Assembly: GCA_965209055.1 (NCBI GenBank)
Contig: OZ242374.1
Coordinates: 64,001-128,000, forward strand
Direction of reading: 5' to 3'
From: Acidobacteriota bacterium
GTDB lineage: Bacteria > Acidobacteriota > UBA6911 > RPQK01 > JAJDTT01
Length of the DNA: 64,000 nucleotides
This document shows, piece by piece, positions 39,754 to 62,536 of the stretch. How positions within the stretch are numbered: position 1 is the stretch's first letter; every line of letters starts with the position of its first letter. Made by a program: the position numbers and the translations under genes. The notes beneath the pieces were generated by a model that was not told the DNA's origin, did not search any database, and was given only the letters and a program-made list of their open reading frames with translations.

Positions 39754-39790
39754 CGGACCGGGGCTGGCACAGCCTGCAGAGGATGCAAAG

Positions 39791-46539: not shown

Positions 46540-46606
46540 TCCGTGCGGTTACGTTGTCCCCGGGCAGAAGCGAATATCCGGCCCATATCTTCAGGGAGTC
46601 TATTTG

Positions 46607-46945
46607 ATGGAGGTTCACGCGGAGCGGGAAGGTGGCGCCTTGATCGCCCGGGCCGAGGGCCGTATCGATGGCGCCAACGCGCGTGAATTCGAGAATGCCC
46701 TGCATGCGGCGCTCGGCAAGGATGACAGTATGTTGATCCTGGATCTGCAGTCTCTCTCCTACATCAGCAGCGCGGGTCTTCGGGTCATTTTGATGGCTGC
46801 AAAAATTCTCCAGGGGCGGGGCGGAAAGTTCGTGGTCTGTTCGCTCTCGGAATCAATCGACGAGGTGTTTGAGATCAGTGGTTTCAACCGGATCATCCCG
46901 ACCCATGAGACCCGTTCCGATGCACTCGCCGCCCTTGGCGAGTAG
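46607..46945 (+). CDS. STAS anti-anti-sigma factor, copy 1
   Basis: GRID, DL..LSYISSAGLR (phosphorylatable Ser) and VFEISGF. Confidence 0.93.
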   Translation: MEVHAEREGGALIARAEGRIDGANAREFENALHAALGKDDSMLILDLQSLSYISSAGLRVILMAAKILQGRGGKFVVCSLSESIDEVFEISGFNRIIPTHETRSDALAALGE

Positions 46946-47138
46946 GCAGTCCCCAAGTACCCTTGATTGGGGGGCGCATCCGTCAGACAGGTGGCGACAA
47001 CGTCGCATCATGAGAATTTCTGGCCCCCAATGGCGGCCAATGCCGGGAAACGGACGTAATTGCTGCGACCGGCTCCCGGCGTAGTGTATGGATTTTCGGA
47101 AAGAGTAGGCTTGCGCCGGAGTCTACGGGAGACATGAA

Positions 47139-48329
47139 GTGGGAACGAATGATTTGGACCTGATGAACCGTCCGTGCAAGATCCTGGTGGTGGACGACGA
47201 ACCGGATCTTGAGCCGCTCATGCTTCAGCGTATGCGGCGGCCAATACGCTCCGGCCGGTACACTTTCGTGTTTGCCCGAAACGGTGTCGAAGCTCTCGAA
47301 CGGCTGAACGAGGAGCAGGACATCGACATGGTGCTGTCAGACATCAACATGCCCCAAATGGATGGGCTCACGTTGTTGCAGCAGATCCCCAAGGTCGATC
47401 CCAACATCCGTTCCGTCATCATTTCGGCGTACGGTGACATGAAGAATATCCGGACGGCGATGAACCGGGGAGCGTTTGACTTCGTCACCAAGCCGCTGGA
47501 TTTCAAAGACCTTCGAATCACCATCGACCGGACGGTCCAGCACATGATGGAGTGGCGCGAGGCCCTGGCTTCGCGGGACAAGCTGGTCGCGTTGCAGAAC
47601 GAACTCAATGTCGCCAACCAGATGCAGCAATCCATCCTTCCCAGTCAGTTCCCCAAGGGCACCGACTACGAAGTGTCCGCCAGCATGGAGGCGGCTCGCA
47701 ATGTGGGCGGAGATTTTTACGATGTCATCCACCTCCACGAAGGCCGGATCGGTCTGGCCATTGCGGACGTTTCGGACAAGGGAGTGCCTGCCGCGCTCTT
47801 CATGATGTCCAGCCGGACTCTGCTCAAGGGCGCCGCCATCGGCACTCTGGATCCGGGCCGGGTCCTGAGGGAGGTCAATAACCTGCTTGACGAGGACAAC
47901 GACGCCGCCATGTTCGTCACCCTCCTGTACGCGGTGTACGATCCGGCCAGCGGAGAACTGACCTACGCCAACGGCGGACACAACTCCCCGCTGGTCGTCC
48001 ATGCCGACGGACGCTCCTCTCTGCTTCCTCTCACTCATGGGATCGCCCTGGGTGTGATTCCCGACCTCGATTTCCACGAAAACACCGTGGTCCTTTCACC
48101 CGGAGACACCGTGGTTTTCTACACCGACGGCGTCACCGAGGCCATGGACGACGACGGCGAAGAGTTCGGTACGGAACGTCTGTTCGAGATCTTTGCGGAT
48201 GGGCCCCCGAAAGATTCCGAGGAGGCCAACAACGCGGTCTTCGAGGCGGTCAGGGACTTCGTCGGGGATACTCCTCAATCGGACGACATCACCTGCATGG
48301 TGCTCTATCGAAGGGAGAGCGATCGTTGA
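47139..48329 (+). CDS. Receiver domain fused to a PP2C/SpoIIE phosphatase (RsbU/RsbP-like)
   Basis: ILVVDDE, SDINMP, DFVTKP; then VGGDFYD, ADVSDKG, YTDGVTE and SDDIT. Confidence 0.93.
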   Translation: MGTNDLDLMNRPCKILVVDDEPDLEPLMLQRMRRPIRSGRYTFVFARNGVEALERLNEEQDIDMVLSDINMPQMDGLTLLQQIPKVDPNIRSVIISAYGDMKNIRTAMNRGAFDFVTKPLDFKDLRITIDRTVQHMMEWREALASRDKLVALQNELNVANQMQQSILPSQFPKGTDYEVSASMEAARNVGGDFYDVIHLHEGRIGLAIADVSDKGVPAALFMMSSRTLLKGAAIGTLDPGRVLREVNNLLDEDNDAAMFVTLLYAVYDPASGELTYANGGHNSPLVVHADGRSSLLPLTHGIALGVIPDLDFHENTVVLSPGDTVVFYTDGVTEAMDDDGEEFGTERLFEIFADGPPKDSEEANNAVFEAVRDFVGDTPQSDDITCMVLYRRESDR

Positions 48330-48745
48330 GCCGGAAGCTGGCCCTGAAGATTGCACCCAGGGCCGAAGAATTGGATACGATCACAGCCGCCGTGGAAGAA
48401 TTCGGCGACGCCGAGAAATGGCCGCCGCAACTCGTCTTTCGAGTCAATCTGGTGCTCGAGGAGTTGGGACTCAACATCATCAACCACGGCAGGACCGACG
48501 ATCTCCATGAGATCGAGATCACTTTGACCTCGGAACCGGGATCGCTCACCATCGAGATCGTGGACAATGGCCTTCCCTTCGATCCGTTGGAGGATGCGCC
48601 CTCGCCCGATCTGGACTCCGGAGTCGCAGACCGTGCCGTGGGCGGTCTGGGTGTCTACCTGGTGCGCACCATGATGGACGAGATGCACTATCGCCGCGAC
48701 GGAGGTAGAAACTACCTGACCCTGGTCAAAGAGTTGGCCGAGTGA
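48326..48745 (+). CDS. RsbW-like anti-sigma factor Ser kinase, copy 1
   Basis: LEEL..NII.HG, DNG.PFDP and GGLGVYLV. Confidence 0.92.
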   Translation: MSRKLALKIAPRAEELDTITAAVEEFGDAEKWPPQLVFRVNLVLEELGLNIINHGRTDDLHEIEITLTSEPGSLTIEIVDNGLPFDPLEDAPSPDLDSGVADRAVGGLGVYLVRTMMDEMHYRRDGGRNYLTLVKELAE

Positions 48746-48924
48746 CGCCGGGATCCGCCATGGAGGCGCGCTCCAACTCCTCCCGGCTCCAAGCGCGCCA
48801 CGCCGGCGCGGCGGGTGGAACGGACGGCAACGTTCGCCATAGCCTGACGTTGGCAGTTCCAGGCTCCCAACCCCCGGTGCTGTCAAACACGCGAGCGATC
48901 TGATCGGTCGCCTATGGGTTCGCG

Positions 48925-49812
48925 ATGGACAGGGCCGCTGCCATGGAGACGCCGTCCGGCAAAGCTGCGGCGGATGAGAACTTCCCCGTCGGCTCCTGGT
49001 TGTTGCCGGCGGACCTGAGACCTCATATTGCAACCTTCTATGCCTATGCCCGGGCGATCGACGATATTGCCGACAACCCCGACCTGGATCCGGGAGACAA
49101 GATCGAGCGACTGGACGGCTTCGCCCGAGCGGTGAGGGGCGCCGAAACAGGTGATCCGGCTTTTGGCAAAGCTCACGCCGTCCGCCGCAGTCTGGAGATC
49201 ACGCAGGTCACCCATCGGCATTGTGTCGATCTGACGCGCGCCTTCATACAGGACGCGACCAAACTGCGGTATGCCGACTGGAACGATCTCATCGGTTACT
49301 GTGATCTTTCGGCAGCGCCCGTGGGGCGCTACCTGGTCGACCTTCATGGCGAATCGAAGGCCGCGTATCCCGCCTGCGACGCCCTTTGCAACGCGCTCCA
49401 GGTGCTCAACCACCTGCAGGACTGCGGACCTGACTACCGTTCGTTGAACCGGGTCTATCTTCCTCAGAACTGGATGGCGGCGGCCGGGGCCGGTGTCGAG
49501 GCGCTGGGACGCAGGCGTTCGACTCCGGCGCTCAGGCGAGTATTGAATCGGTGCCTCGATGCAACCGAGACGTTGTTGGAGTCGGCGGATCGCCTGCCGG
49601 ACCGGTTTCGCAACCTTCGTTTCGCCATGGAAACGGCCGTGATCGTAGCCATCGCCCGGAAGCTCAGCAGGGAGTTGCGCCGGCGGGACCCTTTGGCCGA
49701 ACGGGTCGTGCTGACCAAGGTTCAGTACGCGGCCTGCTTTTGGCGTGGAATCGGCCGGACCTTGCTCGTGAGGGTCCGGCGTCGGCGCACCGAAGCCGAA
49801 CAAGTAACATGA
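48925..49812 (+). CDS. hpnC: Squalene pathway HpnC (hydroxysqualene synthase)
   Basis: ENFPVGSWLLP, ARAIDDIAD, YC..SAAPVGR and ALQVLNHLQD...D...LNRVYLP. Confidence 0.92.
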   Translation: MDRAAAMETPSGKAAADENFPVGSWLLPADLRPHIATFYAYARAIDDIADNPDLDPGDKIERLDGFARAVRGAETGDPAFGKAHAVRRSLEITQVTHRHCVDLTRAFIQDATKLRYADWNDLIGYCDLSAAPVGRYLVDLHGESKAAYPACDALCNALQVLNHLQDCGPDYRSLNRVYLPQNWMAAAGAGVEALGRRRSTPALRRVLNRCLDATETLLESADRLPDRFRNLRFAMETAVIVAIARKLSRELRRRDPLAERVVLTKVQYAACFWRGIGRTLLVRVRRRRTEAEQVT

Positions 49813-49860
49813 TCGTCGTGTTTCCGATGAAGAAATGCGGGCTGGAGGGCCGACGTCGCA

Positions 49861-50793
49861 GTGGTTGTGCGACATGAAGGTTTCCGCCGCGGGAAGGCTG
49901 ACAACGTGAGGACGGTATCTCGATCGCAAGCCGGACCGGGAAGCCGGCCCGGCGGTCGGATCAATCCCGCGGATCACGTGAATCGTGTCGTAGCGCGTTC
50001 GGGCACGTCGTTCCTGTGGGGCATGAGAGCGCTTTCGGCGGAGCGGCGCCGTGCAATCTACGCCATCTATGCGTTCTGCCGGGAAGTCGACGACATTGCC
50101 GACGAACCGGGCGAAGACGCCGACAAGAGGCGAGCGCTGGCGGCATGGAGGCAAGAGATCGACCGGCTCTATGCGGGGGAGCCGAATTGGCCGACCACGA
50201 GGGCTCTGTTGAAACCGGTGCGCCGTTACAACTTGCCGCAAGAGGAATTCCTGGCGGTGATCGAGGGTATGGAAATCGATGCCGGGCCCACCGTGCGGAT
50301 GCAGAACCTGGATGATTTGTTGCACTATTGCCGCAAGGTCGCGGGAGCTGTCGGCAGGCTGTCCATCCATGCTTTCGGCGTGCCGCGCAACCCCGGATTT
50401 CAAATCGCCGAGACGCTGGGGAACGCTTTGCAACTGACGAATATCCTTCGTGACCTGAAGGCGGATGCGGCGCTGCATCGGCTCTACGTGCCACAGGAGT
50501 TGCTGAGCAAGCACGGCGTCGCCGCCACGTCGTTGAACGCAACCCTGAGTCATCCAGGCTTCAGCGCAGCCTGCGCCGAACTGGCCGGTCTCGCTCGAGG
50601 TTACTACGCCGAAACCGAAAGACTGATCGCCGAATTCGGATGGCGGAGGATTCGCCCTGCCGTTCTCATGATGGCGGTGTACCGGGAATTGCTCGATCGC
50701 CTGGAAGAGCGGGGATGGACGCGGCTCGACGTCGGCATCCGGCTGACGCGGTTCCGGAAGCTGCTGCTCGCTCTGCGTTACGGACTGTGCTGA
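49861..50793 (+). CDS. hpnD: Presqualene diphosphate synthase HpnD
   Basis: SGTSF, YAFCREVDDIAD, YC.KVAGAVG and ALQLTNILRD; start approximate. Confidence 0.92.
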   Translation: MVVRHEGFRRGKADNVRTVSRSQAGPGSRPGGRINPADHVNRVVARSGTSFLWGMRALSAERRRAIYAIYAFCREVDDIADEPGEDADKRRALAAWRQEIDRLYAGEPNWPTTRALLKPVRRYNLPQEEFLAVIEGMEIDAGPTVRMQNLDDLLHYCRKVAGAVGRLSIHAFGVPRNPGFQIAETLGNALQLTNILRDLKADAALHRLYVPQELLSKHGVAATSLNATLSHPGFSAACAELAGLARGYYAETERLIAEFGWRRIRPAVLMMAVYRELLDRLEERGWTRLDVGIRLTRFRKLLLALRYGLC

Positions 50794-50805
50794 CGGAGGT
50801 TCACC

Positions 50806-52083
50806 GTGCCCCGAACCCACGTCATCGGCGCCGGTTTGGCGGGTCTCGCCACCGCGGTGTCGCTGGTGCGGCGGGGCCGGGACGTGACGCTCTACGAAGC
50901 GGGCGGCCATGCGGGAGGCCGCTGCCGCTCCTACGCCGATGCCAAGCTTGAGCGCACGATAGACAACGGCAACCATCTGCTGCTGAGCGGCAACCGCGCC
51001 GCGATGCGCTACCTGGCTGACATCGAGGCCGCCGACTCCCTGATCGGCCCGGCTTCCGCCTGCTTTCCGTTCCTGGATTTGCGCACGGGTCAAAGGTGGC
51101 TGCTGCGGCCGAATGCCGGACGACTCCCGTGGTGGATCCTGAAGTCCGGGCGGCGGGTGCCGGACACAAGGGTCTGGAATTACTTTTCGGCGCTGCGGTT
51201 CGTCACGGCGGGTGCCGACGCGACCGTGACCGACTGCGTCGGAGGAACCGGCGTTCTCTTCGAGAGATTCTGGAAACCGCTGGCGGTCGGTGCATTGAAT
51301 ACGCCGGCTCGATCCGGGGCGGCGAGGCTCCTGTGGTCCGTTTTGCGTGAGACATTCGCCCGAGGGGAGGCGGCCTGCCGGCCGCGGATCGCCAAGACAG
51401 GACTCTCCGCCGCCTTCGTGGACCCGGCCCTGAAGTTCCTTCACCAAAGGGGCGCGACGGTTCGGTTCGGCCGCCGATTACGCAGGATCAGCTACCGGGG
51501 CCGCCGCGCGAACGGTCTGGACTTCGGCTCCGAAAGAATACGATTGCGGGAAGGCGGGTCCGTGGTACTGGCTGTTCCTCCTCTGGCTGCGGCGGAGCTG
51601 GTGCCGGGGTTGTCCGTCCCCGGCGAAACCCACGCCATCGTCAACGCTCATTTCCGGTTGTCCAAACCGGCCGGAATGCCGCCGGAGCTTCCTCTCCTCG
51701 GACTGATCGGGGGAACCGCGCAGTGGCTCTTCATTCGCGGCGACGTGGCTTCCGTCACCGTCAGCGCAGCGGACGCACTGGCAGGCGAGCCGGCAGAAGT
51801 CATTGCCCGCAGGAGTTGGAACGACGTTGCGGCGGCGTTGGGCCAGGAGCGCGAAAGGATACCCCGCTGCCGCGTCGTCAAGGAAAAGCGCGCCACGTTC
51901 GCGCAGACGCCCGGCCAGGTGAGGCGGCGTCCCTCGACCGGAAGCGAGTTCGCCAACCTGTTGCTGGCCGGGGATTGGATCGACACGGGTCTGCCCGCAA
52001 CCATCGAGAGCGCAGTTCGTTCCGGTCAGATGGCGGCTCGCGTCATAGCGGGATCCGGGACGCCTGGTGCGGAGCGCCCGTAG
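50806..52083 (+). CDS. hpnE: Hydroxysqualene dehydroxylase HpnE (FAD-dependent)
   Basis: GAGLAG, GGRCRSY, DNGNHLLL, EKRATF and LAGDW..TGLPATIESAVRSG; directly follows hpnCD. Confidence 0.92.
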   Translation: MPRTHVIGAGLAGLATAVSLVRRGRDVTLYEAGGHAGGRCRSYADAKLERTIDNGNHLLLSGNRAAMRYLADIEAADSLIGPASACFPFLDLRTGQRWLLRPNAGRLPWWILKSGRRVPDTRVWNYFSALRFVTAGADATVTDCVGGTGVLFERFWKPLAVGALNTPARSGAARLLWSVLRETFARGEAACRPRIAKTGLSAAFVDPALKFLHQRGATVRFGRRLRRISYRGRRANGLDFGSERIRLREGGSVVLAVPPLAAAELVPGLSVPGETHAIVNAHFRLSKPAGMPPELPLLGLIGGTAQWLFIRGDVASVTVSAADALAGEPAEVIARRSWNDVAAALGQERERIPRCRVVKEKRATFAQTPGQVRRRPSTGSEFANLLLAGDWIDTGLPATIESAVRSGQMAARVIAGSGTPGAERP

Positions 52084-52474
52084 CCGGTTGACGGGTTCGA
52101 TCAGACTCCCGGACCCTGGATCAATGACCGGAATGCGACAACGCGCATGGGGCCGGAAACCGCCGGTTGATCAATCCTGCGGCCGGGATATTTGATCCGG
52201 CAGCGGCCTTCCTGAAAATGGGAGGGGGGTCGTTACTGTGTGCTATGATTTGTTGCTGACTCGGTCCAGGGAATTGGATCGAGCATAAAACCCTTTACGG
52301 CGGGCACTTTCGGCGCATCCGCATGTGATTGGCTGGCACGCGCGGCGCATTGATCGGGCCTGGAGATTCACCGTCGAATCTGGAATGGCCTTCGACCGGG
52401 ACAGTTCTCCGGACGGAGCGTCCTGAAGATCCGCTGCTGTCCATCAGTCAGGCAGACTGTCAGGAGATCGACGA

Positions 52475-53647
52475 ATGCTGCAATCCCCCTCGGCATATGT
52501 CGAGGGCTACCGGGAGGCCCGGCGCTACGACCAGACGCTTGCCGACAGCTATATCCGGCACACAACCGTCGGCGACCCCGCGCTCGATCCGGTGATGGAC
52601 GAGGTCTCCTCGTTGCCGCCCCACGTATTGCATCGATTCATCCGAGCCGGGATCGACCAGGACGAAGAGGGTCTTCGCGCCGCGCCGCAGTCACTGCGCG
52701 GTTTTTTCGAGAATCTGGAAGATCCCCCCTGGTTCGACTACGAAGCTTTTCGTCCCGGCGTCCGGGCCTTTCACCTGAACACGACGAAAATCCTCGTCGC
52801 CTTTGTCACGGGCGTGCTGATCGAGGGATTTGCGACGCTGATCGCCAAGTCTTTCGCCACGACGGGACGCGTCTTGAGCCCCTTGACCGCGAGAAGGCGC
52901 CTGATGCAGAACAACCGCCATCTGCTGGAGGTGTTTTTCCCCGGAGGTCTGCGGAGGGATGGAGATGGTTGGAAGCTCTCCATGCGCCTTCGCTTCGTTC
53001 ACGCCCGAGTGAGGCACCTGTTGGCGAATTCCGACGCTTGGGATGCCGATGCTTGGGGTACGCCGATCAGCGCGGCGCACCTGGGTTTCGCCACCACCGT
53101 CTTTTCCATGCGCCTGCTCCAGCATTCGATTTCCGTGGGGGCCAGGTATTCCGGGGAGGAGCGAGAGAGTGTGCTGCAAGTCTGGCGATACGCCGGGTAC
53201 GTCATGGGGGTGCCCGAGTCCATCCTCTTTTCCAGTGAAAGCCACGCGCGCGAAATATTCGATGTAGCCCACATGTGCGAGCCGACCCCGGACAGTGATT
53301 CGGCCACCATGGCCAACGCGCTGGTAGAGGCGATTCCCCTGACGGCGGGAATCGAAGACCCGGAGGAACAGGTCGCCGTGAAGGACCTGGCCTACCGGCT
53401 GTCACGCTCCCTGATCGGAAACAGGCTTGCCGACCAGTTGCAGTTTCCAAAGTCGAATACCTTGGGTGTGCTGTTCGCTTACCGGTTGAAACAACGTTTT
53501 CAGCATCTGCTCAAGAGCCAGCAGTTGATCAGGTCGGAGAATTTTTGCCAGATGCTCGAAATCTCGGTCTACGACGAGGCCGTGTTGGGCGCGATGAGTT
53601 ACAAATTGCCTGACCACGTTCGGGCGTCGAAATCGAGTCCCTGGTGA
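52475..53647 (+). CDS. MpaB/Lcp (rubber-oxygenase-like, DUF2236) family heme oxygenase
   Basis: GDPALD, PPWFD, TGR, PGGL...GDGWK...RLRFVHARVR (candidate heme His), WGTPIS and WRYAGYVMGVP. Confidence 0.8.
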   Translation: MLQSPSAYVEGYREARRYDQTLADSYIRHTTVGDPALDPVMDEVSSLPPHVLHRFIRAGIDQDEEGLRAAPQSLRGFFENLEDPPWFDYEAFRPGVRAFHLNTTKILVAFVTGVLIEGFATLIAKSFATTGRVLSPLTARRRLMQNNRHLLEVFFPGGLRRDGDGWKLSMRLRFVHARVRHLLANSDAWDADAWGTPISAAHLGFATTVFSMRLLQHSISVGARYSGEERESVLQVWRYAGYVMGVPESILFSSESHAREIFDVAHMCEPTPDSDSATMANALVEAIPLTAGIEDPEEQVAVKDLAYRLSRSLIGNRLADQLQFPKSNTLGVLFAYRLKQRFQHLLKSQQLIRSENFCQMLEISVYDEAVLGAMSYKLPDHVRASKSSPW

Positions 53648-55947
53648 ACGAAGGTATGACGTCGCCCTTCTTGGACCGCTACATTGCTGTTGTCCTGAAC
53701 CACCGCTGGACGGTGTTGGTGGTTGCGACAGTGGTCATGCTGGTCATGACGGCAGGTGCCCGGTACATCACCACCACGAACGACTACCGAATTCTGTTCG
53801 ACGAAGACAATCCCCAACTCGCCGCATTCGATGCCCTGGAGAACACCTATGCCGCATCCAACAGGGCATTGATCGCCATTGCGCCCGGGGCGGGTTCCGT
53901 ATTCACGCTCGAGGCGCTTGGGGCGATCGAGGAACTGACCGAAGCTGCCTGGGGCGCCCCCTATTCCACACGGGTCGATTCCCTCACCAACTATTCCCAT
54001 AGCGAAGCGGTCGAGGACGACCTGGTGGTCGAGCCGCTGGTCGATGACGCACAGTCTCTGAACGATGCCGACCTGGCCCGAATCCGGACGATTGCGCTGA
54101 ATGCTTCCGAGATCGCCGGGCGCCTGGTCTCCACCGACGGCCGAGTCGGCGGCTTGACCATCAATTTCGTCCTGCCCGAAGATCCGGACGCCGCGGTGGC
54201 GGAGATCAACGACTATCTCAACGCCGCTCTGGAAGAGGCTCGCGGACGGCATCCTGAAATCGCCTATTTCCTGACCGGCGATGTCGTCATGCACCGCGCC
54301 TTCGCCGAAGCCACACAGGACGATCTTCAGATCCTGGTTCCCATCGTTTTTCTGGTGATCGCGGCCTCCGCCGCGATTCTTCTGCGCTCGTTTCTTGCCA
54401 CCCTGTCCATCTCGGTCCTGCTCGTATTCATCGTCAACACGACAATGGGGTTGGCGGGCTGGCTCGGAACCGTGATGAGTCCGACCAATGCCGGGGTACC
54501 CATTATCGTGATGGCGGTCGCCGTTGCGGATTCAATTCACATCGTCACCAGCACCTTGCTGGGCATGAGCCGCGGTTTGAGCAGGAACGCCGCGATCGCG
54601 GCATCCGTGCGGACCAATGCTTATCCCGTATTTCTGACGACTCTCACAACGGTGATCGGCTTTCTCAGCCTGAACGCTTCGGACTCGCCTCCGTTTCGCG
54701 TCCTGGGCAATCTGGTGGCGTTCGGTGTTTCTTGTGCTTTCGTTTATTCCATGTTGCTTCTGCCGGCGGTGCTTTCGATCCTGCCGCTGCGCGCGCGCCG
54801 GCTGCTCCCTGAAAAGACTCTCTTCTTCGAACGCTTCGGCGCCTTTGTCGTGGCCAAGCGCAGATTTCTGCTCTGGTTCGTTCCCCTCATCGCCATAGGC
54901 CTCGTCATGGGCATCCCCCGCAACCAGTTGAGCGACAATTGGCCCAAGTATTTCGACGAGCGCTACCAGTTCCGGCGCGATACGGATTTCGTCATCGAAA
55001 ACCTGACCGGCTTGGATACGCTGGAGTATTCGCTGAAAGCGGGACGGGAAGGCGGCATCACCGATCCCGAATATCTGGGCGCCGTCGAGAAATTCGCCGA
55101 ATGGTACCGCACGCAACCCGAAGTGACCCATGTCCAGGCGTTCCCGGACATCATGAAACGCCTGAACAAGAACATGCACGGCGACGACCCCGGTTACTAT
55201 CGGTTGCCGGACGACCCCGAACTCGCGGCCCAATACCTGTTGGTCTACGAGCTGTCGCTTCCCTTCGGCAATGACCTGAACAACCGGATCGACATCGCCA
55301 AGTCCGAGACCCGCATGACGGTGACGGTCCGTGACTCTTCGTCGCGGGGCCTGCGCGAGTTGGACGCTCGCGCTCAAGATTGGCTCCGCGCCAACCTGCC
55401 CCATCGAGTCGTGCCGGCCACGGGCCTCAGTGTGGTCTTTGCCCACCTTTCTCTTCGAAACATCGAAAGCATGCTGCGGGGGACGATCATTGCCATGGCC
55501 ATCGTCTCGTTCATCCTGGTCCTGATATTCCGGAGCGTGCGCCACGGACTCATCAGTCTGATTCCCAACTTCATTCCTGCGGCAATGAGCTTCGGATTCT
55601 GGGGCTATCTGGTGGGCAATCTGGGTCTGGCCGGTTCCGTGATGACCGCGATTGCGTTCGGTATCGTCGTAGACGACACGATTCATTTCCTGACCAAGTA
55701 TCTGAAGGGGCGCCGCCAGGGCCTGGATGCGGCCGCGGCCGTGCGTTCCACATTCAACACTGTCGGAAAGGCTCTGTGGACCACGACTGCGGTCTTGTCG
55801 GCCGGCTTCCTGGTGTTCGCTTCATCGGGATTCGAGGTCAGCCGGTCGCTCGGACTCATGGTCACGATCACCATAGTGTTCGCGCTTCTCGCCGATTTCT
55901 TTCTGCTGCCGCCTCTGTTGATGGCCCTCGATCGGAGAAAATCATGA
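53644..55947 (+). CDS. MMPL/RND-family lipid exporter
   Basis: Two halves with AVADSIH / GIVVDDTIHF, TTLTTVIGF and large periplasmic loops; overlaps the oxygenase stop codon (GTGA). Confidence 0.9.
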   Translation: MNEGMTSPFLDRYIAVVLNHRWTVLVVATVVMLVMTAGARYITTTNDYRILFDEDNPQLAAFDALENTYAASNRALIAIAPGAGSVFTLEALGAIEELTEAAWGAPYSTRVDSLTNYSHSEAVEDDLVVEPLVDDAQSLNDADLARIRTIALNASEIAGRLVSTDGRVGGLTINFVLPEDPDAAVAEINDYLNAALEEARGRHPEIAYFLTGDVVMHRAFAEATQDDLQILVPIVFLVIAASAAILLRSFLATLSISVLLVFIVNTTMGLAGWLGTVMSPTNAGVPIIVMAVAVADSIHIVTSTLLGMSRGLSRNAAIAASVRTNAYPVFLTTLTTVIGFLSLNASDSPPFRVLGNLVAFGVSCAFVYSMLLLPAVLSILPLRARRLLPEKTLFFERFGAFVVAKRRFLLWFVPLIAIGLVMGIPRNQLSDNWPKYFDERYQFRRDTDFVIENLTGLDTLEYSLKAGREGGITDPEYLGAVEKFAEWYRTQPEVTHVQAFPDIMKRLNKNMHGDDPGYYRLPDDPELAAQYLLVYELSLPFGNDLNNRIDIAKSETRMTVTVRDSSSRGLRELDARAQDWLRANLPHRVVPATGLSVVFAHLSLRNIESMLRGTIIAMAIVSFILVLIFRSVRHGLISLIPNFIPAAMSFGFWGYLVGNLGLAGSVMTAIAFGIVVDDTIHFLTKYLKGRRQGLDAAAAVRSTFNTVGKALWTTTAVLSAGFLVFASSGFEVSRSLGLMVTITIVFALLADFFLLPPLLMALDRRKS

Positions 55948-56768
55948 TTTACTCTTGTTCCGTCCGGTCTCCCCTCGCGCATGTGGTTCCTGCCGTCGTC
56001 GTCATGGCCTGTCTGGCTTCGCCGGCGTTCGCCCGTTCCGACGACGCTTCCCCCGAAGAAATCGGCCTGAAGATTGCGCTCGAAGCGCGGGAGCAGGGAG
56101 ACGGATTCGGCAATTTTACGGCTCAACAGACCATGGTGTTGCGGAACAAGCAGGGGAAGCAGAGTCGGCGCCAACTCCGGGTCAGGGTGCTCGAAGTGCC
56201 CGGAGACGGAGACAAGAGCATGTTCGTCTTCGATGAGCCGCGGGACGTCAAGGGAACGGCTTTCCTGATCCACGCCCATCGCGACAAGGCGGACGACCAG
56301 TGGCTCTATCTCCCGGCGCTGAAGCGGGTGAAACGGATCAGTTCGTCGAACCGCTCCGGCTCCTTCATGGGCAGCGAGTTCGCCTATGAGGACATGAGCG
56401 CGCAGGAAGTGGAGAGATTCAGCTACCGATACCTGCGGGACGAGCCTTGCGGCGAGTTGACGTGCACCGTCTCCGAGCGCGTCCCTGTGGACAAGAAATC
56501 GGGTTACCGCAGGCAGTTGGTCTGGCAGGACAAAGACGCGTTTCGCGTTTGGAAGGTGGAATACTACGATCGCAAGGATTCGCACCTGAAGACCCTCACC
56601 TTGAGGAACTACCGGCAGTACCTGGATCGCTACTGGCAGGCGGGCGAGATGACGATGGTGAATCATCTCACCGGGAAAAGCACCGTTCTGACATGGACGG
56701 AATATGAATTCCGGACCAAGCTCAACGATCGCGACTTCACCCGCACCGGGCTGCAACGGATTCGTTAA
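55944..56768 (+). CDS. Periplasmic LolA-like outer-membrane lipoprotein-sorting protein
   Basis: Signal peptide; P.DVKGTAFL, DDQWLYLPALKRVKRI, SFMGSEFAYED and EYYDR...LK; ATGA overlap with the MMPL stop. Confidence 0.9.
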   Translation: MIYSCSVRSPLAHVVPAVVVMACLASPAFARSDDASPEEIGLKIALEAREQGDGFGNFTAQQTMVLRNKQGKQSRRQLRVRVLEVPGDGDKSMFVFDEPRDVKGTAFLIHAHRDKADDQWLYLPALKRVKRISSSNRSGSFMGSEFAYEDMSAQEVERFSYRYLRDEPCGELTCTVSERVPVDKKSGYRRQLVWQDKDAFRVWKVEYYDRKDSHLKTLTLRNYRQYLDRYWQAGEMTMVNHLTGKSTVLTWTEYEFRTKLNDRDFTRTGLQRIR

Positions 56769-58018
56769 TGCCCCGCCGTCTCGTCATTCGGTGCGCGCGA
56801 TTCTGCACTGCGGGGCTTCTCATCCCAGTCTGTATTGGCGGACTCCGGGCCGAGATCGTCAGGCACGAGACTTCGGGGCGCGTGAGCCTTGAAAGCCGGT
56901 GGCATCCCCAAAGTGCGGCGTACCCCGGCCAGCGTTCACACGCAAGCGGTCTGGCCATCGAGCCCGAATTCTATCTCGAAGACCATGGAGGCCGGAGCTT
57001 CAATCTGGCGCCGTTTTTTCGTTACGACGCCGGGGACCCGAGCCGAACCCATGTCGATCTGCGTGAAGCCTACCTTCTGCTGTTCGGCGACGTCGCGAAT
57101 AGCGAATGGGAGCTCCGTCTAGGGGTGGACCGGGTGTTCTGGGGAGTCACCGAATCCCGCCACCTGGTCAACATCGTCAACCAGATCGACCTGGTGGAAC
57201 ATCCCTACAAGGAACCCAAGCTGGGCCAACCCATGGCCCACCTTACTTTTTCCGGCGATTGGGGAACGGCGGAAGTCTTCGGCCTGACGTATCACCGTGG
57301 CCGCACCTTTCCGGGCCGCTTCGGCCGTCTGCGACTTCCGTTTGTTGTGGACAACGACATGATTTCCTATGAGAGCGACGCCAAGCAGTGGCATCTGGAT
57401 TTAGCCGGCCGCTACAGTCGCAGTTTCGGGCCTCTCGACCTGGGCATGAGCGTTTTCGACGGCACCAGTCGAGATCCCTTTCTGACTCTGGATCCGGGCC
57501 TCTCCGGAGAACCGGCCTTGGTCCCATACTACGAGCAGATCCGGCAGTTCGGGCTGGACGCCCAGGTGACGGCCGGGTCCTGGCTGTTCAAGCTCGAGGC
57601 GATTCGGCGAACCGGCGCCCAAAACCTTCTCGGCGTGGAAGAAGACTACTCGGCTTCCACGTTTGGCGGCGAGTACACGTTCTATTCCGTATCCGGCTCG
57701 GCGTTGGATCTTACGCTGCTCAGCGAATGGAACTACGACGACCGGCGCCAATATGCCACCAACATCTTCCAGAATGATTTTTTCCTGGCCGCGAGGATAG
57801 CCTTCAACGACGTTCAGAGCACCGAGCTTCTCGCCAGCATTCTGCGAGACGCCGACAGTTCAGGACAGGTGCTGACTCTGGAATTGAACCGGCGCATCTC
57901 GGATCAGTGGTCTCTGCGTCTGGAGTCGATCGCCTTTCGGGGTATCCAGGAAGTGGATCTCACCTATTTGACTCGGCGCGACAGCTTCGTCGAATTGGCC
58001 TTGATTTACAATTTTTGA
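56768..58018 (+). CDS. Probable outer-membrane beta-barrel partner
   Basis: Signal peptide; DLREAY, G...VFWGVTES; amphipathic strands; C-terminal LIYNF; TAATG coupling to the upstream gene. Confidence 0.75.
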   Translation: MPRRLVIRCARFCTAGLLIPVCIGGLRAEIVRHETSGRVSLESRWHPQSAAYPGQRSHASGLAIEPEFYLEDHGGRSFNLAPFFRYDAGDPSRTHVDLREAYLLLFGDVANSEWELRLGVDRVFWGVTESRHLVNIVNQIDLVEHPYKEPKLGQPMAHLTFSGDWGTAEVFGLTYHRGRTFPGRFGRLRLPFVVDNDMISYESDAKQWHLDLAGRYSRSFGPLDLGMSVFDGTSRDPFLTLDPGLSGEPALVPYYEQIRQFGLDAQVTAGSWLFKLEAIRRTGAQNLLGVEEDYSASTFGGEYTFYSVSGSALDLTLLSEWNYDDRRQYATNIFQNDFFLAARIAFNDVQSTELLASILRDADSSGQVLTLELNRRISDQWSLRLESIAFRGIQEVDLTYLTRRDSFVELALIYNF

Positions 58019-58254
58019 GGGTCGCCGGGTTCCCTCGGCATCAGGCAGCCGCGCCGCTCAAATCGCCGGCTCGGGCGTCCTCAGGCGGGAAAAGGAGTCG
58101 GCCTCATCAGTGGCATTCAGCCTTCCGTACCATTTCCCGGCAACGAAAACCATCTGCCGACCGTGGCGTGGTGGTTTCGCTTGAAGGTCCACCGGTGGTA
58201 ATATCGCGGCAAATTGTCGGAAGGATTAGGTCACAATATCCGGGAGTCAGAGCA

Positions 58255-58593
58255 ATGGAGGTTCACGCCGAGCGGGAAGGAGGGATCTTGATCACCCGAG
58301 CGGAGGGCCGTGTCGACGGCACCAATGCCCGCGAATTCGAGGAGGCGCTCCACGCAGTAATCGGGGAGGACGATCGTCTCCTGATCATGGACTTACAAGA
58401 TCTTTCCTACATCAGCAGTGCCGGCCTTCGAGCTTTTCTGATGATTGCAAAGAAGCTGCAGGGACGAGGTGGAAAGCTCGTTGTGTGCTCGCTCACCGAT
58501 ACCATCAACGAGGTGTTTGAGATCAGTGGTTTCAGCAGAATCATCCCCACTCACGCCTCCCGGTCCGAAGCCGTCGCCAAACATGGCGGATAG
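58255..58593 (+). CDS. STAS anti-anti-sigma factor, copy 2
   Basis: 83 of 112 residues identical to copy 1 by hand alignment; YISSAGLR retained. Confidence 0.93.
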   Translation: MEVHAEREGGILITRAEGRVDGTNAREFEEALHAVIGEDDRLLIMDLQDLSYISSAGLRAFLMIAKKLQGRGGKLVVCSLTDTINEVFEISGFSRIIPTHASRSEAVAKHGG

Positions 58594-58761
58594 GATCTAA
58601 TCGTGGAGACCGGAGTGGATGCCGGTCGAGTCTGCTGCGTCGCACTGTCGGGGCGCGCCCGATGACCGGCCGTATTCGCAAGCGGACGGGAATTGCGCCG
58701 GTGACAAGGCACAGTCGCCCGTCGTCTCCTTTATGAGGTTCAGTCTGAGCGAGAGGCGTCG

Positions 58762-59181
58762 TTGAGCCGAAAGCTGTCCCTGGAAATCGACCCCAGAGTT
58801 GAGGAACTGAGTGTGATTACGGCCGCTGTGGAGCAGTTCGGCGACGCGGAAAAATGGCCGTCCGACATGATCTTTCAAATCAACCTGGTGATCGAAGAGC
58901 TGGGACTCAACATCATGACCCACGGGAAGACCAAGAACCTCGAGAAGATCGAGATCACGCTGACCGCGGAAGGTGAGTCCCTCACCGTCGAAATCGTGGA
59001 CAACGGCCATCCGTTCGATCCGACCAGCGAGGCTCCCGAGCCCGATCTGGATGTGGAATTAGGGGAACGCACCATCGGCGGCCTCGGGATCCATATCGTA
59101 CGCAGCCTGGTGGACAACTTGCGCTATCGGCGTCAGGGGGGGAGAAACCACGTGACTCTGGTCAAGGAGCGGGTCCGGTGA
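58762..59181 (+). CDS. RsbW-like anti-sigma factor Ser kinase, copy 2
   Basis: Same 139-aa length and TTG start (MSRKL) as copy 1; EELGLNI, DNG.PFDP and GGLG. Confidence 0.92.
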   Translation: MSRKLSLEIDPRVEELSVITAAVEQFGDAEKWPSDMIFQINLVIEELGLNIMTHGKTKNLEKIEITLTAEGESLTVEIVDNGHPFDPTSEAPEPDLDVELGERTIGGLGIHIVRSLVDNLRYRRQGGRNHVTLVKERVR

Positions 59182-60362
59182 AGCGATGGTCCGGCCGGCC
59201 GGCCGGCGTCCTCATTTTGGTGGCCGCATGGTTGCTGACAGCATTGCCGGTTCCGGCGCAGGAACCCGGCGTTTCCGACGACCGCATTCTCTTCGGACAG
59301 TCCGCCGCTTTCAGCGGTCCTGCCCAGGAGTTGGGTATCAGCATGCGTCTCGGCATCCAGGCCGCCTTCCACGAGGTCAACCGGGCGGGCGGCATCGATG
59401 GCCGTCGGCTGGAGTTGACGTCGCTGGACGATGCCTACGAACCGGAGGCCGCCGTTGCCAATACCGTCACTCTGATCAGGGAACAAGAGGTCTTCGCTCT
59501 CATCGGCGCAGTCGGCACACCCACCTCACGCGCGGCCGTACCGGTTGCCGCGGACGCCAGCGTGCCGTATATCGCCCCCTTCACGGGTGCCGAGTTCCTG
59601 CGCGCCGCCGAGTGGAGCAACGTCATCAACCTTCGGGCCTCCTACAACCAGGAGACCGAAGAAATGGTAGCCAGGTTGACTGAGGACATGGGAATCAAGC
59701 GGATCGCCGTATTGTTCCAGGACGATTCCTTCGGCCGGGCCGGATACCGTGGGGTTCGGGCCGCGCTCGATCGACGGAATATGACGCCGGTGGCCATCGG
59801 CCTTTACCCTCGCAATACCCTGGCGGTAAAGATGGCTCTCCTGGACATCAACGACGGGGACCCCAAAGCCGTGATTCTCATCGGCGCGTACAAACCTCTC
59901 GCCACATTCATTTCCTGGGCCCGGTTTTCGGGCCTCCAAGCCGTATTCATGAACATCTCCTTCGTCGGCAGCAACGCGTTGGCGAAGGAGCTCGGCTCCG
60001 CCGGCGCCGGTGTTTACGTCACTCAGGTCGTGCCCTTCCCGACCGACAAATCGCGTTCCATCGTCCGCGACTACAATCGCGCCCTTGCCGCCTACGCATC
60101 CGGCGTGGTTCCCGGGTTCATCTCCTTCGAAGGCTATCTGGCCGGGCGCCTGGCCATTGCCGGCCTGAAGCAGTCCGGGGGTGAGATTAGTCGAGCCGGT
60201 TTTCTGGACGGTTTTCGCCAAGCCGGAATGATGGACCTCGGTGGGTTCCGGCTTCGTTTCGGCGACCAGGACAACCAGGGATCGGATGCCGTTTATCTGA
60301 CCGTAATCGGTCGTGACGGTCAATATCGTCCCATCAGCTCAATGCTGGAAGCGGCGCCGTGA
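59178..60362 (+). CDS. Periplasmic ligand-binding protein (Leu/Ile/Val-binding-like), with no ABC permease adjacent
   Basis: Signal peptide; GQSAAFSGP, N.AGGI.GR, DDAYEP, GAVGTP and NLRASY..E. Confidence 0.9.
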   Translation: MKRWSGRPAGVLILVAAWLLTALPVPAQEPGVSDDRILFGQSAAFSGPAQELGISMRLGIQAAFHEVNRAGGIDGRRLELTSLDDAYEPEAAVANTVTLIREQEVFALIGAVGTPTSRAAVPVAADASVPYIAPFTGAEFLRAAEWSNVINLRASYNQETEEMVARLTEDMGIKRIAVLFQDDSFGRAGYRGVRAALDRRNMTPVAIGLYPRNTLAVKMALLDINDGDPKAVILIGAYKPLATFISWARFSGLQAVFMNISFVGSNALAKELGSAGAGVYVTQVVPFPTDKSRSIVRDYNRALAAYASGVVPGFISFEGYLAGRLAIAGLKQSGGEISRAGFLDGFRQAGMMDLGGFRLRFGDQDNQGSDAVYLTVIGRDGQYRPISSMLEAAP

Positions 60363-62536
60363 TCGAACGACTGAACCGCTTGCTCGGTAGTCTGCTGCAG
60401 AGTCGCTTTCGGATCTCGACGCAGCTCTACGTCACCATCGGAGGCGCCGTCGCCCTGACGATCGCCGCGAGTCTCGTGGGCTGGTTTTCCTTTGACCGCG
60501 TGGGCGATCTGCAGCGGCGGGTCAATGAACTTCGGTTCCCGGAATTGGAGGCCGCGTTCGGTGTGGCGCAGTACAGCGCCGCCCTGGTCGCGGCTGCGCC
60601 TCGGCTGACCACCGCCGAAACGACCGACGACTTCGCCCAGGTTGCGGCAAGCATCAACGAGTCGAAAACGGCGCTCGAGGAGCAGTTGGCCGTTTTGGAG
60701 CGCCAGGATGCGGCCGACGAACGTTTCCGGCGCATTCGCGCTCACGCCGATACCTTGAGATCGAACATCGAGGCCATCGAAACCGACATGTCGGCGATTT
60801 ACGAATTGGCCGAGCGGAGTTCGGCTCTGCGCACCGAACTCGCGGATCTGCAAGGACGCCTGCAGCGGGTCATCTTCCCGACCGTGGATGACCAATTCTT
60901 TTACACCATCACGGGACACCGAACCTTGGGGGAGCCTCCGGCTCCTCGTTGGAAACATTTCTCGGAAGATCAGTTCGATCGCTTTCGTCACTTGACCGAT
61001 CTGCTGGCGGACGCCAATACCGCCACGCAACTTCTGGACAGTGCTTTCACGGTTTCGGACGCCTTCCTGATCGAGCCTTTGCGAGACAAGTTCGAGGCGT
61101 CTCGCAATCGCATCGAAAGGAGCCTGTCGTCGCTGGGAGAGTCCGAATTGCTTGGGCAGATCTCCGCCGACTTCCAACTTCTTTTCGAGTTGGGCGCCGG
61201 AGAGGAGGGCTGCCTCAATCTGCTGGTCCGCCAATTGAGACTGACCGCGCGGCAGAGAGACCTCTTGGCGGAGAACCGCGGAATCGCCATTGACCTGGTG
61301 GCGGCCGTCGACGAGTTGGTGAAAGCGTCTCAGGCGAGAGCGGCAGCCGACACTCAAGAATCCACACAAGCCATTCTGGCGGGCCGAGTCCTCCTCGTCG
61401 CCATCAACGGGCTCAGCATCGTCGGCGCCGTGCTCATCGCCTGGCTGATCGTGGGACGGATACTGCTGCGCCGCCTGGCGCTGTTGTCGCAGCGCATGCG
61501 GCGAATGGCCGGGGGAGAACTGGAGGGCAAGGTCGAGATCGAAGGAAGGGACGAGGTGGCCGACATGGCCGCCGCCCTGGAGGTGTTTCGGCGCCACGCG
61601 CTGGAGGTCCAGCGTCTGAACCTGGTGGAGAAGCTGGCAGAGGAATTGCGGGGTAAGAACGAACAGTTGGAGAGCGTCCTCGCCGACTTGCGGAAAGCTC
61701 AGGACCAGATCGTCATGCGTGAAAAGCTGGCGGCGCTCGGTGAGCTCACCGCGGGCGTTGCCCATGAGATCAAGAATCCTTTGAACTTCGTCAAGAACTT
61801 CGCGGAGGCGTCGCAGGAACTCCTGGAGGAACTCCAGGAAGTCCTGGAAGAAGAAGGCGAGAAACTGAGTAAGGACGACCGCGAGCTGGTCGCGGAGCTG
61901 ATTCAGGACATCACCGACAATCTACGCCGCATCCACCAGCACGGCGAACGGGCCAACCGGATCGTTCACGACATGCTTATGATGGGCCGTGGCTCGGGCG
62001 AATGGCAGGTGACGGACGTCAACAACCTGCTCGACGAGCACACCCGTCTTGCCTACCACAGCGCGAGGGCGACCGATCCCGATTTCCAGCTCCATATGGA
62101 GATGAGTCTGGACCCGGAGGCCGGTCAATTCGAAGTCGTTCCGCAGGACATGGGCCGGGTTTTTCTGAACATGGTGGGCAACGCCTGCTACGCCACCGAT
62201 CAGAAACGGCGCGCGGCGATCGAGGCGGGGAAAGGCTTTTTCGACTACATGCCGACTCTGTGGGTCGCCACCCGGCGTCTCGAAGACCGGATCGAGGTCC
62301 GAATCAAGGACAATGGGAACGGAATTCCGCCTGAGATCGTAGAAAAGATCTTCAATCCGTTCTTTACCACGAAACCCACCGACCAGGGAACGGGCCTGGG
62401 CCTTGCTCTCTCCAACGACATCGTGCGGGAGCATGGAGGATCCATTCGAGTGGAAACCGAACCCGGCGAGTTCACCGAAATGATTGTCGAAGTCCCCGTG
62501 ATGCGCCCCGTTGCCATGGAAGGGGCTTCGGGGTAG
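60359..62536 (+). CDS. Membrane sensor histidine kinase with a TorS-like helical periplasmic domain and HAMP
   Basis: Two TM helices flanking a long helical sensor; GRDEVADMA (HAMP), GVAHEIKNP, N box, DNGNG and FFTTKP..GTGLGL. Confidence 0.9.
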   Translation: MIERLNRLLGSLLQSRFRISTQLYVTIGGAVALTIAASLVGWFSFDRVGDLQRRVNELRFPELEAAFGVAQYSAALVAAAPRLTTAETTDDFAQVAASINESKTALEEQLAVLERQDAADERFRRIRAHADTLRSNIEAIETDMSAIYELAERSSALRTELADLQGRLQRVIFPTVDDQFFYTITGHRTLGEPPAPRWKHFSEDQFDRFRHLTDLLADANTATQLLDSAFTVSDAFLIEPLRDKFEASRNRIERSLSSLGESELLGQISADFQLLFELGAGEEGCLNLLVRQLRLTARQRDLLAENRGIAIDLVAAVDELVKASQARAAADTQESTQAILAGRVLLVAINGLSIVGAVLIAWLIVGRILLRRLALLSQRMRRMAGGELEGKVEIEGRDEVADMAAALEVFRRHALEVQRLNLVEKLAEELRGKNEQLESVLADLRKAQDQIVMREKLAALGELTAGVAHEIKNPLNFVKNFAEASQELLEELQEVLEEEGEKLSKDDRELVAELIQDITDNLRRIHQHGERANRIVHDMLMMGRGSGEWQVTDVNNLLDEHTRLAYHSARATDPDFQLHMEMSLDPEAGQFEVVPQDMGRVFLNMVGNACYATDQKRRAAIEAGKGFFDYMPTLWVATRRLEDRIEVRIKDNGNGIPPEIVEKIFNPFFTTKPTDQGTGLGLALSNDIVREHGGSIRVETEPGEFTEMIVEVPVMRPVAMEGASG

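Follow-up and report, generated by a model that had tools for sequence, protein, structure and literature searches.

An MpaB/Lcp-family oxygenase and a candidate lipid exporter form a conserved gene module linked to squalene synthesis in uncultured bacteria

The window analyzed here is a 64-kb stretch of contig OZ242374.1 from an Acidobacteriota bacterium. Between positions 48925 and 58018 it carries seven genes, all on the + strand, in which the HpnC, HpnD and HpnE enzymes of squalene synthesis are followed by a putative haem oxygenase and by a pump, a carrier and a barrel that together resemble a lipid exporter. An earlier reading made from the letters alone (the sequence-only reading) had described this co-oriented set. 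Its gene assignments (HpnC, HpnD, HpnE, oxygenase, MMPL, LolA-like and barrel) are all supported by the NCBIfam and Pfam scores below, where lengths are in amino acids (aa).

48925..49812, + strand: HpnC; TIGR03464 equivalog, 270.5 bits (cut-off 250.45); PF00494, 183.6 bits
49861..50793, + strand: HpnD, presqualene diphosphate synthase; TIGR03465 equivalog, 310.9 bits (cut-off 278.6)
50806..52083, + strand: HpnE, hydroxysqualene dehydroxylase dependent on flavin adenine dinucleotide (FAD); TIGR03467 equivalog, 388.6 bits (cut-off 283.05)
52084..52474, no strand: intergenic gap of 391 bp between hpnE and the oxygenase gene
52475..53647, + strand: putative haem-b oxygenase of the MpaB/Lcp family, 390 aa; PF09995 MPAB_Lcp_cat, 68.6 bits (cut-off 23)
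53644..55947, + strand: HAE3/MMPL-type RND inner-membrane pump, 767 aa; PF03176, 97.7 bits, above cut-off
55944..56768, + strand: LolA-like periplasmic lipid-carrier candidate, 274 aa, with signal peptide; PF17131, 206.8 bits
56768..58018, + strand: DUF1302-like outer-membrane beta-barrel candidate, 416 aa, with signal peptide; PF06980, 26.7 bits (cut-off 23.2)

All three enzymes of the HpnCDE route of hopanoid producers are present, adjacent and co-oriented, and each exceeds its equivalog cut-off. The genes are closely spaced, with 48 bp between hpnC and hpnD and 12 bp between hpnD and hpnE. Since the TIGR03465 match begins only at residue 44 of HpnD, the true start of this protein may lie further downstream. 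HpnC converts presqualene diphosphate to hydroxysqualene in this route, and squalene is the predicted product of the three window enzymes. Bacterial hopanoids, sterols and some C30 carotenoids are made from squalene. The canonical hpn layout has the cyclase gene after hpnE, whereas the window has the oxygenase and exporter genes in that place. A Pfam scan of the window's open reading frames (ORFs), which took in all 106 that reach 170 aa and a few shorter ones, found no squalene-hopene cyclase, squalene epoxidase or phytoene synthase, and HpnE was the sole carotenoid-desaturase-type protein. Together with motif scans this agrees with the sequence-only reading, according to which the window has no cyclase, epoxidase or, HpnE excepted, carotenoid desaturase.

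The four genes downstream of the gap, here called the cassette, overlap one another. The oxygenase and pump genes meet at GTGA (overlapping by 4 bp, unless the true start is the ATG at 53656, which would leave a gap of 9 bp), the pump and carrier genes at ATGA (4-bp overlap), and the carrier and barrel genes at TAATG (1-bp overlap). Because of these overlapping junctions, the translational coupling that had been proposed for the four genes is confirmed.

Homologues of the oxygenase were collected in several searches. A word-indexed search gave 1384 matches at E <=1e-3, the best 120 of which were all at least 61% identical over nearly the full length, and a library clustered at 50% gave 2521 representatives at E <=1e-3 and 169 at E <=1e-30. 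Profile A1 was built from the window oxygenase and 17 sequences picked by hand out of the 120 best matches. Searched against one genome per species, it yielded 502 confirmed relatives, and the best 80 of these were taken with at most 10 kb of flank on each side; all locus counts below refer to these best 80. The 1432 ORFs of the 80 loci were clustered into families. All 80 loci come from metagenome-assembled genomes (MAGs), which carry 10 phylum names by the NCBI ranks of their titles, with 4 loci unranked; some of these labels are unreliable, because titles such as 'Deltaproteobacteria bacterium' are among them. The nearest locus, L001 (Acidobacteriota MAG OZ241897.1), is 93% identical and is syntenic across the whole region, regulators included. 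L039 and L040 are identical copies at two contig ends of one MAG, and the oxygenase frames of L074 and L079 hold 2 and 1 in-frame stops, respectively, so that they are pseudogenes or assembly errors.

The oxygenase, pump, carrier and barrel genes form a conserved module, a conclusion that is well supported by these loci. Using the window proteins as tblastn queries, we found the pump in 72, the carrier in 71 and the barrel in 66 of the 80 loci. The pump gene lies directly 3' of the oxygenase gene in 70 loci, at a median gap of 86 bp (range -1 to 194 bp). It is followed by the carrier gene in 64 loci (within 200 bp in 57), and the carrier gene by the barrel gene in 58 (within 200 bp in 54). The oxygenase gene stands alone in L036, L069, L077, L078 and L080, and the other exceptions are in part short contigs. 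Transporter genes are rearranged or duplicated in L042, L043, L050, L054, L059 and L075; among these, L050 and L054 have pump genes on both sides of the oxygenase gene and extra carrier and barrel copies. L036 and L077 represent two oxygenase paralogues of one genome (OZ242296.1), with no transporter nearby.

Two kinds of additional enzyme genes occur in or near the cassette. A flavin amine-oxidase gene stands between the pump and carrier genes in five loci (L015, L017, L021, L022 and L033; at about 13500-14960), and its product is HpnE-, CrtN- or PPOX-like, with 74.7 bits on the HpnE model, under the cut-off. L033 has a second flavin amine-oxidase paralogue at 15860-17236. A gene for the molybdopterin subunit of an aldehyde oxidase/xanthine dehydrogenase lies near the cassette in nine loci (L043, L044, L049, L050, L054, L058, L064, L065 and L067), directly after the pump gene in L043, L050 and L054. 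This neighbour could process an aldehyde product.

The module is also linked to genes of squalene and precursor synthesis, which is likewise well supported. The sequence-only reading had proposed a synteny check across genomes, and had named rarity of hpnCDE near such oxygenases as the outcome that would count against it. By tblastn with the window proteins at 50% identity or more, HpnC was found within 10 kb of the oxygenase in 19, HpnD in 20 and HpnE in 18 of the 80 loci; 17 loci have all three, and 21 have one or more. The outcome of this check favours the sequence-only reading. Clustering of the ORFs gave the following recurrent families, listed with the number of loci in which each occurs.

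IspH family: 30 loci (NF002188, 478 bits)
Periplasmic binding protein family: 21 loci
HpnC family: 17 loci
DXS family: 17 loci (TIGR00204, 810 bits)
HpnE family: 16 loci
Histidine kinase family: 15 loci
Nameless cluster of antisense ORFs: 15 loci (an artefact, set aside)
STAS family: 14 loci
HpnD family: 14 loci
Second SQS_PSY family ('Sqs2', here Sqs-like): 11 loci
Na/H exchanger family: 11 loci

With the four cassette genes and the artefact excluded, isoprenoid genes account for 5 of the 10 named families found in at least 11 loci. IspH and DXS copies also occur near hpn clusters, as they do in the related loci here. The best family for the Sqs-like protein is TIGR01559 (squalene synthase), at 116 bits and under the cut-off of 286.75, and among proteins of solved structure eukaryotic squalene synthases match it best (E 1e-18 to 1e-15), with phytoene and dehydrosqualene synthases ranking after them. 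Three more loci (L011-L013), whose sole evidence is an unverified HpnD-like match of 24-27% identity, would bring this class to 14. Counted together, a squalene synthase of either type lies within 10 kb of the oxygenase gene in 35 loci (21 with HpnC/D/E and 14 with the Sqs-like protein, the 3 weak ones included), and at least one isoprenoid gene (HpnC/D/E, IspH, DXS or the clustered Sqs-like family) in 42. Less frequent neighbours are IDI (4 loci) and a fusion of 3-hydroxy-3-methylglutaryl coenzyme A reductase with mevalonate kinase (HMGR-MVK; 3 loci), which ends 3-6 bp before the oxygenase gene in L014 and L016. L016 also has a polyprenyl synthase gene, and L014 a cytochrome P450 gene beside the Sqs-like gene.

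At least four arrangements of hpnCDE and cassette are legible from the locus maps. The hpnCDE genes can lie upstream and co-directional (the window and L001); convergent past the barrel gene, in many cases separated from it by IspH (L020, L044, L058, L062 and L079 are examples); divergent upstream (L023 and L026); or split (L052 and L068). With the Sqs-like gene, L022 has on a single strand the order MFS-Sqs-IspH-oxygenase-pump-flavoprotein-carrier-barrel. The oxygenase itself, and not the pump alone, is tied to the squalene genes, because in L023, L026 and L036 its neighbours include squalene synthase genes while the surrounding 10 kb contain no transporter. We found no prior account of a linkage between such an oxygenase and squalene genes in the literature searched, a body that most subscription journals lie outside.

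Could the cassette and hpnCDE be adjacent by chance, with no functional link? The 391-bp gap between them and the absence of hpnCDE near the cassettes of L002-L009 would fit such a view. However, a single-copy three-gene set is expected within 10 kb in about 20 kb / 5 Mb = 0.4% of genomes, compared with the 21 of 80 loci observed, in several arrangements and lineages. The discordance of L066 described next also speaks against it. We consider chance adjacency, which the synteny counts already contradict, to be most improbable.

A quick maximum-likelihood tree of 81 oxygenases, in which differently named phyla interleave, requires at least 9 changes of the HpnCDE label, 5 of them forced by starred branches. 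For the window and the 17 loci in which oxygenase, pump, HpnC, HpnD and HpnE are all present, the tree of oxygenase plus pump has 9 of 15 splits in common with the HpnCDE tree, compared with at most 3 under random relabelling, and the identity matrices of the oxygenase and of HpnC/D/E are correlated (r 0.62-0.81; 0 of 2000 permutations as high). This congruence and correlation are not taken as proof of co-transfer, because shared descent could explain both. L066 is discordant, as its cassette groups with that of the window (support 99) and its HpnCDE with those of L020 and L060 (support 100). The cassette and hpnCDE have therefore been joined, or exchanged, more than once. The HpnCDE proteins of the gammaproteobacterial loci L066, L020 and L060 are sisters, and the corresponding oxygenase-pump cassettes belong to the two clades that branch deepest in the oxygenase tree, which suggests replacement of the cassette beside a resident hpnCDE. 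Near-identical oxygenases (end branches of 0.01-0.04) are found under different phylum names, for instance in L005-L009 and in L047 and L067, with the pairs Latescibacterota and Gemmatimonadota, and Binatia and Syntrophobacteria; the cause is either horizontal transfer in the recent past or a lack of consistency in MAG names.

The precursor-supply genes around the cassette also bear on what the oxygenase acts on. Its substrate could be another isoprenoid fed by this shared supply of precursors, for instance a polyprenol, the side chain of a quinone or a polyene of the C30 carotenoid type, with the neighbours of the squalene synthase family making some other head-to-head product or merely sharing regulation. 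This would account for the 7 loci where IspH and DXS lie beside the cassette and no squalene synthase is found within 10 kb. The score of the Sqs-like protein under the TIGR01559 cut-off, the HpnE/CrtN-like flavoproteins inside five cassettes, and the P450 (L014) and polyprenyl synthase (L016) neighbours point the same way. However, HpnC, HpnD and HpnE of the window all exceed the equivalog cut-offs of the squalene route, two non-orthologous types of squalene synthase converge on one neighbourhood, and the window has neither a phytoene synthase nor any desaturase besides HpnE. On this evidence we regard a substrate other than squalene as rather unlikely.

The oxygenase matches PF09995 (formerly DUF2236) over profile positions 3-216 of 231, and about 60 further conserved residues lie past this domain at the C-terminus. 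Profile A1 matches Lcp of Streptomyces sp. K30 (5O1L, 5O1M) at E 1e-8, with R164, T168 and H198 of Lcp aligned to R142, N146 and H176 of the oxygenase. These three positions hardly vary among DUF2236 proteins; in Lcp, H198 serves as the proximal haem ligand, and neither R164 nor H198 is dispensable (PMC6311187). R142 and H176 are invariant among the 18 A1 sequences, and after the addition of 41 distant representatives they are kept in 39 and 41 of 42 aligned sequences, respectively. Lcp K30, the fungal MpaB' and Gordonia Nro1 are the characterized PF09995 members, and the window oxygenase, which keeps the equivalents of Arg164 and His198 of Lcp, is predicted from its sequence to bind haem. At position 146, Asn is invariant in A1; of the 42 sequences, 21 (the near clade) have Asn and 18 (distant relatives) have Thr. 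Thr168 is found in 99.6% of Lcp homologues and is called almost essential in a review, a T168A variant retaining 2% of activity (PMC6311187). An acidic catalytic base is assigned in the known members, namely the proposed E148 in Lcp, D124 in MpaB' and D57 in Nro1; E148 aligns with Ser126 of the oxygenase, and an invariant Glu117 stands nine residues upstream of Ser126.

The oxygenase has a conserved N-terminus, MLQSPSAYVEGY..., which lacks a hydrophobic signal region and any Tat or Sec signal. Because of this lack of a signal the enzyme is predicted to be cytoplasmic. It has one hydrophobic stretch, at residues 106-124, and an amphipathic-helix scan gave nothing above shuffled sequences. Domain scans of longer relatives (P0231 and others) revealed no informative fusion, and the homologue P0035 falls in MpaB-family clusters only in a protein atlas.

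What the characterized relatives do offers a guide to the reaction. Lcp cleaves the C=C bonds of polyisoprene to give aldehyde and ketone ends (PMC6311187, PMC5522427), MpaB' cleaves C19=C20 of a farnesyl chain (10.1101/524025, PMC6900556), and Nro1 cleaves nitrile rubber (PMC12724181). By this likeness, the substrate of the window oxygenase would again be a chain of isoprene-type C=C bonds. It differs from Lcp in having Asn for Thr168, Ser for Glu148, no secretion signal and about 60 extra C-terminal residues, and its context is biosynthetic and operonic with an exporter, whereas the known bacterial PF09995 members are degradative. In the literature searched on rubber oxygenases we found no data on Lcp with squalene.

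Among NCBIfam models the pump scores best on TIGR00921 (HAE3), with 165.7 bits, under its cut-off of 351.9. On the HpnN equivalogs it reaches 73.5 bits for TIGR03480 (cut-off 751.85) and 24.7 bits for NF052374 (cut-off 1100). Its closest solved relative is HpnN (5KHN), at E 8.8e-6 and 27.5 bits over residues 610-760. A search for longer pump fusions (at least 1344 aa, a band that excludes pump-LolA fusions) returned only one nonribosomal peptide synthetase-type and one kinase fusion. The carrier matches PDB entry 3BK5 at E 1.3e-82 and gives just 32.8 bits over 61 residues on PF07044 (DUF1329). It is probably soluble, because many of the 23 members aligned lack the N-terminal Cys. The C-terminus of the barrel reads YNF, with the terminal Phe kept in most aligned homologues, and weak DUF1302 matches are found in 20 of 23 homologues; a sequence search of the PDB gave no match for it.

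Three described systems resemble this exporter. HpnN of Burkholderia multivorans, an HAE3 RND protein, transports a lipid made from squalene in the direction of the outer membrane (cited in PMC6394551), but according to the same source it works without dedicated periplasmic and outer-membrane partners. AmeABCD of Castellaniella defragrans, implicated in monoterpene efflux, comprises the HAE3 pump AmeD, the DUF1302 protein AmeA, the DUF1329 LolA-like protein AmeB, and AmeC (PMC6394551). It shares with the window an HAE3-type pump, a LolA-superfamily protein and a DUF1302-type protein in a terpenoid context. The window system, however, has three parts with no AmeC-like gene in the cassette, its carrier is of the short PF17131 type (274 versus 451 aa), its barrel is shorter (416 versus 605 aa) and weakly DUF1302, and it is linked to terpenoid synthesis where AmeABCD is linked to monoterpene degradation. 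In Thalassolituus oleivorans, TOL_3187/TOL_3188 represent the same trio, with the pump and a LolA-like domain fused and a porin-like neighbour, and the compound concerned is n-C28, close to C30 in size (PMC6304351). These proteins, which we liken by description and not by sequence, were described in alkane catabolism, and no PF09995 oxygenase is reported next to them. On Tween 20, Pseudomonas genes for DUF1302 and DUF1329 proteins show cofitness with an RND pump (10.1101/2020.07.04.188060).

These comparisons raise a catabolic or protective role, in which the cassette takes up or expels exogenous isoprenoids or long hydrocarbons, the oxygenase degrades them, and the biosynthetic neighbours reflect shared regulation of membrane isoprenoids. 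AmeABCD confers tolerance to monoterpenes (PMC6394551), the Thalassolituus MMPL-LolA fusion TOL_3187, with its adjacent porin-like protein, is up 42-fold on n-C28 (PMC6304351), and Lcp and Nro1 are degradative (PMC6311187, PMC12724181). However, the recurring neighbours of the cassette are supply enzymes (DXS, IspH, IDI, HMGR-MVK and polyprenyl synthase) and squalene synthases, and sets for beta-oxidation, aldehyde dehydrogenase or CoA ligase are not among them. The predicted cytoplasmic location of the oxygenase also argues against this role. In addition, RND pumps are known as exporters. We thus consider a catabolic or protective cassette to be quite unlikely.

No squalene-hopene cyclase, HpnH, HpnG or HpnN orthologue of a canonical hpn cluster is present in the window or in the 80 neighbourhoods. 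Cyclase motifs (DxDDTA, DCTAE, QW), of squalene-hopene or oxidosqualene type, were found neither in the window frames nor in any of the 80 loci (1432 ORFs), a search confined to these neighbourhoods. Since there is no cyclase in any neighbourhood, squalene itself could be the end lipid. The cassette might then export intact squalene or an uncleaved polyprenoid, as HpnN does with hopanoids, while the oxygenase adds an epoxide, hydroxyl or ketone, or tunes the level of squalene. This idea fits the pump, whose closest match of known structure is the hopanoid transporter HpnN. A modification without cleavage is in line with one mechanism of Lcp that runs through an epoxide (PMC6311187) and with the extra flavin amine-oxidase genes within the cassette of five loci, and the replacement of T168 by Asn and the lack of conservation at E148 allow an altered chemistry. 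On the other side, all three characterized branches of the family cleave C=C bonds (PMC6311187, 10.1101/524025, PMC12724181), and the oxygenase keeps its tie to squalene genes where the transporter is missing (L023, L026, L036), so it is no mere accessory of the pump. Export of an uncleaved lipid is, in our view, an improbable but not negligible explanation.

We tentatively favor a module, spread over many phyla, that ties the making of squalene to an O2-dependent haem enzyme and to a lipid exporter spanning the envelope, and we judge the balance to be slightly against this reading at present. In the mechanism that we envisage, HpnD, HpnC and HpnE would convert farnesyl diphosphate to squalene at the inner face of the cytoplasmic membrane. 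The cytoplasmic haem-b oxygenase would attack a trisubstituted C=C bond of squalene and, by analogy with the characterized members, produce a methyl ketone and an aldehyde. Cleavage at a terminal bond would give acetone and a C27 aldehyde, and cleavage at C10=C11 would give geranylacetone and a C17 aldehyde. The HAE3 RND pump could then draw the lipophilic product out of the inner membrane, the LolA-like protein could ferry it across the periplasm, and the DUF1302-like barrel could insert or release it at the outer membrane. A partner-switching set and a sensor made of a periplasmic binding protein and a histidine kinase, described below, probably control expression. Squalene as substrate, cleavage as reaction and outward transport are proposed here by analogy, and the identity of the product and the regulation of the cassette are put forward in the same conditional sense.

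Several observations weigh against the coupling of squalene synthesis to oxidation and export. No isoprenoid gene lies within 10 kb in 38 of the 80 loci; among these are all 11 Nitrospirales loci and also L002-L009, which at 76-79% identity are the closest outside the species group of the window. The raw locus counts overstate the number of independent events, because the loci are akin to one another. In the enzyme, the clade of the window has Asn146 in place of T168 of Lcp, the proposed base E148 of Lcp aligns with Ser126, and the predicted cytoplasmic location is unlike that of the secreted Lcp. The pump stays under the cut-offs of both the HAE3 and the HpnN models. The outward direction of transport is put in doubt by the related Thalassolituus MMPL-LolA fusion, which is induced when cells grow on n-C28, an induction that the authors discuss as alkane transport (PMC6304351).

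A bolder form of the proposal is that the bacteria make squalene in order to cut it. The genes would constitute a dedicated pathway present under 10 phylum names, probably through horizontal transfer. A cytoplasmic haem dioxygenase of the Lcp/MpaB type would yield two products, a methyl ketone that is volatile and a long aldehyde of apo-triterpenoid type. The three-part conduit would then carry the product outward, to serve as a surface lipid or a signal in the outer membrane or in the surroundings. This is possible but doubtful. If it is true, the oxygenase would be the first squalene-cleaving enzyme to be identified, and the MpaB/Lcp family would have its first biosynthetic role in bacteria. 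We know of no described pathway that cuts squalene oxidatively and exports the product, and, to our knowledge, no enzyme has been assigned to the old reports of bacterial splitting of squalene to geranylacetone.

Only three activities are known in the MpaB/Lcp family, although it is a large one, with the 2521 cluster representatives noted above. The linkage to squalene gives one large clade of this family a concrete candidate substrate. In a similar way, the trio of HAE3 pump, LolA-like carrier and DUF1302-like barrel is a widespread envelope route for lipids, for which the squalene context offers a candidate cargo. The module may point to an ecological function held in common, because it is so far restricted to uncultured lineages and nearly identical under different phylum names.

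The gap between hpnE and the oxygenase gene had been described in the sequence-only reading as about 390 bp with its own promoter. Its size is indeed 391 bp, but the promoter was not confirmed, as a scan for the sigma-70 consensus called none in the gap; no terminator was called after hpnE. An extended -10-like element, TGCTATGAT, lies at 52241-52249 and is kept in L001, the 93%-identical locus. The ATG of the oxygenase gene is preceded by a Shine-Dalgarno AGGAG. A 20-nt direct repeat occupies 52299-52318 and 52331-52350. Overlapping it at 52334-52349 (+), 126 nt before the oxygenase start, is TGGCACGCGCGGCGCA, a sigma-54-like -24/-12 pattern (TGGCAC-N7-GCA). This pattern has 1 match in the 64-kb window, with 0.95 expected by chance, and it is not conserved upstream of the oxygenase gene in other loci; it was rejected as a general feature. 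Rfam gave no match in the gap, and one sub-threshold small RNA match over 46500-59500. The predicted RNA fold of the gap is unremarkable (z-score -0.28).

Genes for signalling proteins flank the seven-gene set on both sides.

47139..48329, + strand: fusion of a response regulator with a PP2C (SpoIIE) phosphatase; PF00072, 87 bits; PF07228, 187.5 bits; relative in 16 of 80 loci
48326..48745, + strand: HATPase_c_2 anti-sigma-type serine kinase; PF13581, 92.4 bits; relatives in 7 of 80 loci
58255..58593, + strand: STAS anti-sigma-antagonist-type protein; PF01740, 73.6 bits; TIGR00377, 77.9 bits; relatives in 14 of 80 loci
58762..59181, + strand: second HATPase_c_2 kinase; PF13581, 85.6 bits
59178..60362, + strand: Peripla_BP_6 binding protein (Pfam); close relatives near the cassette in 13 of 80 loci
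60359..62536, + strand: HAMP histidine kinase (Pfam); close relatives near the cassette in 14 of 80 loci

In 20 of the 80 loci, in several phyla, one or more relatives of these genes lie near the cassette, which suggests a conserved partner-switching control of the cassette.

Elsewhere in the window, long coding-like ORFs without a Pfam match (912, 986, 514 and 583 aa) are found at 26308-32003 (-) and 38209-41542 (+). The G+C content is about 0.60-0.62 over the cassette and its regulators (46000-64000); hpnD-hpnE have 0.656, and the preceding 25 kb 0.63-0.66. A phage-type integrase, two leucine-rich-repeat proteins of very large size (1100 and 1230 aa) and a transposase of the DDE type are encoded at 4099-5358, 7250-10552, 13657-17349 and 17542-18510, in a stretch of lower G+C (0.57-0.62 versus about 0.65).

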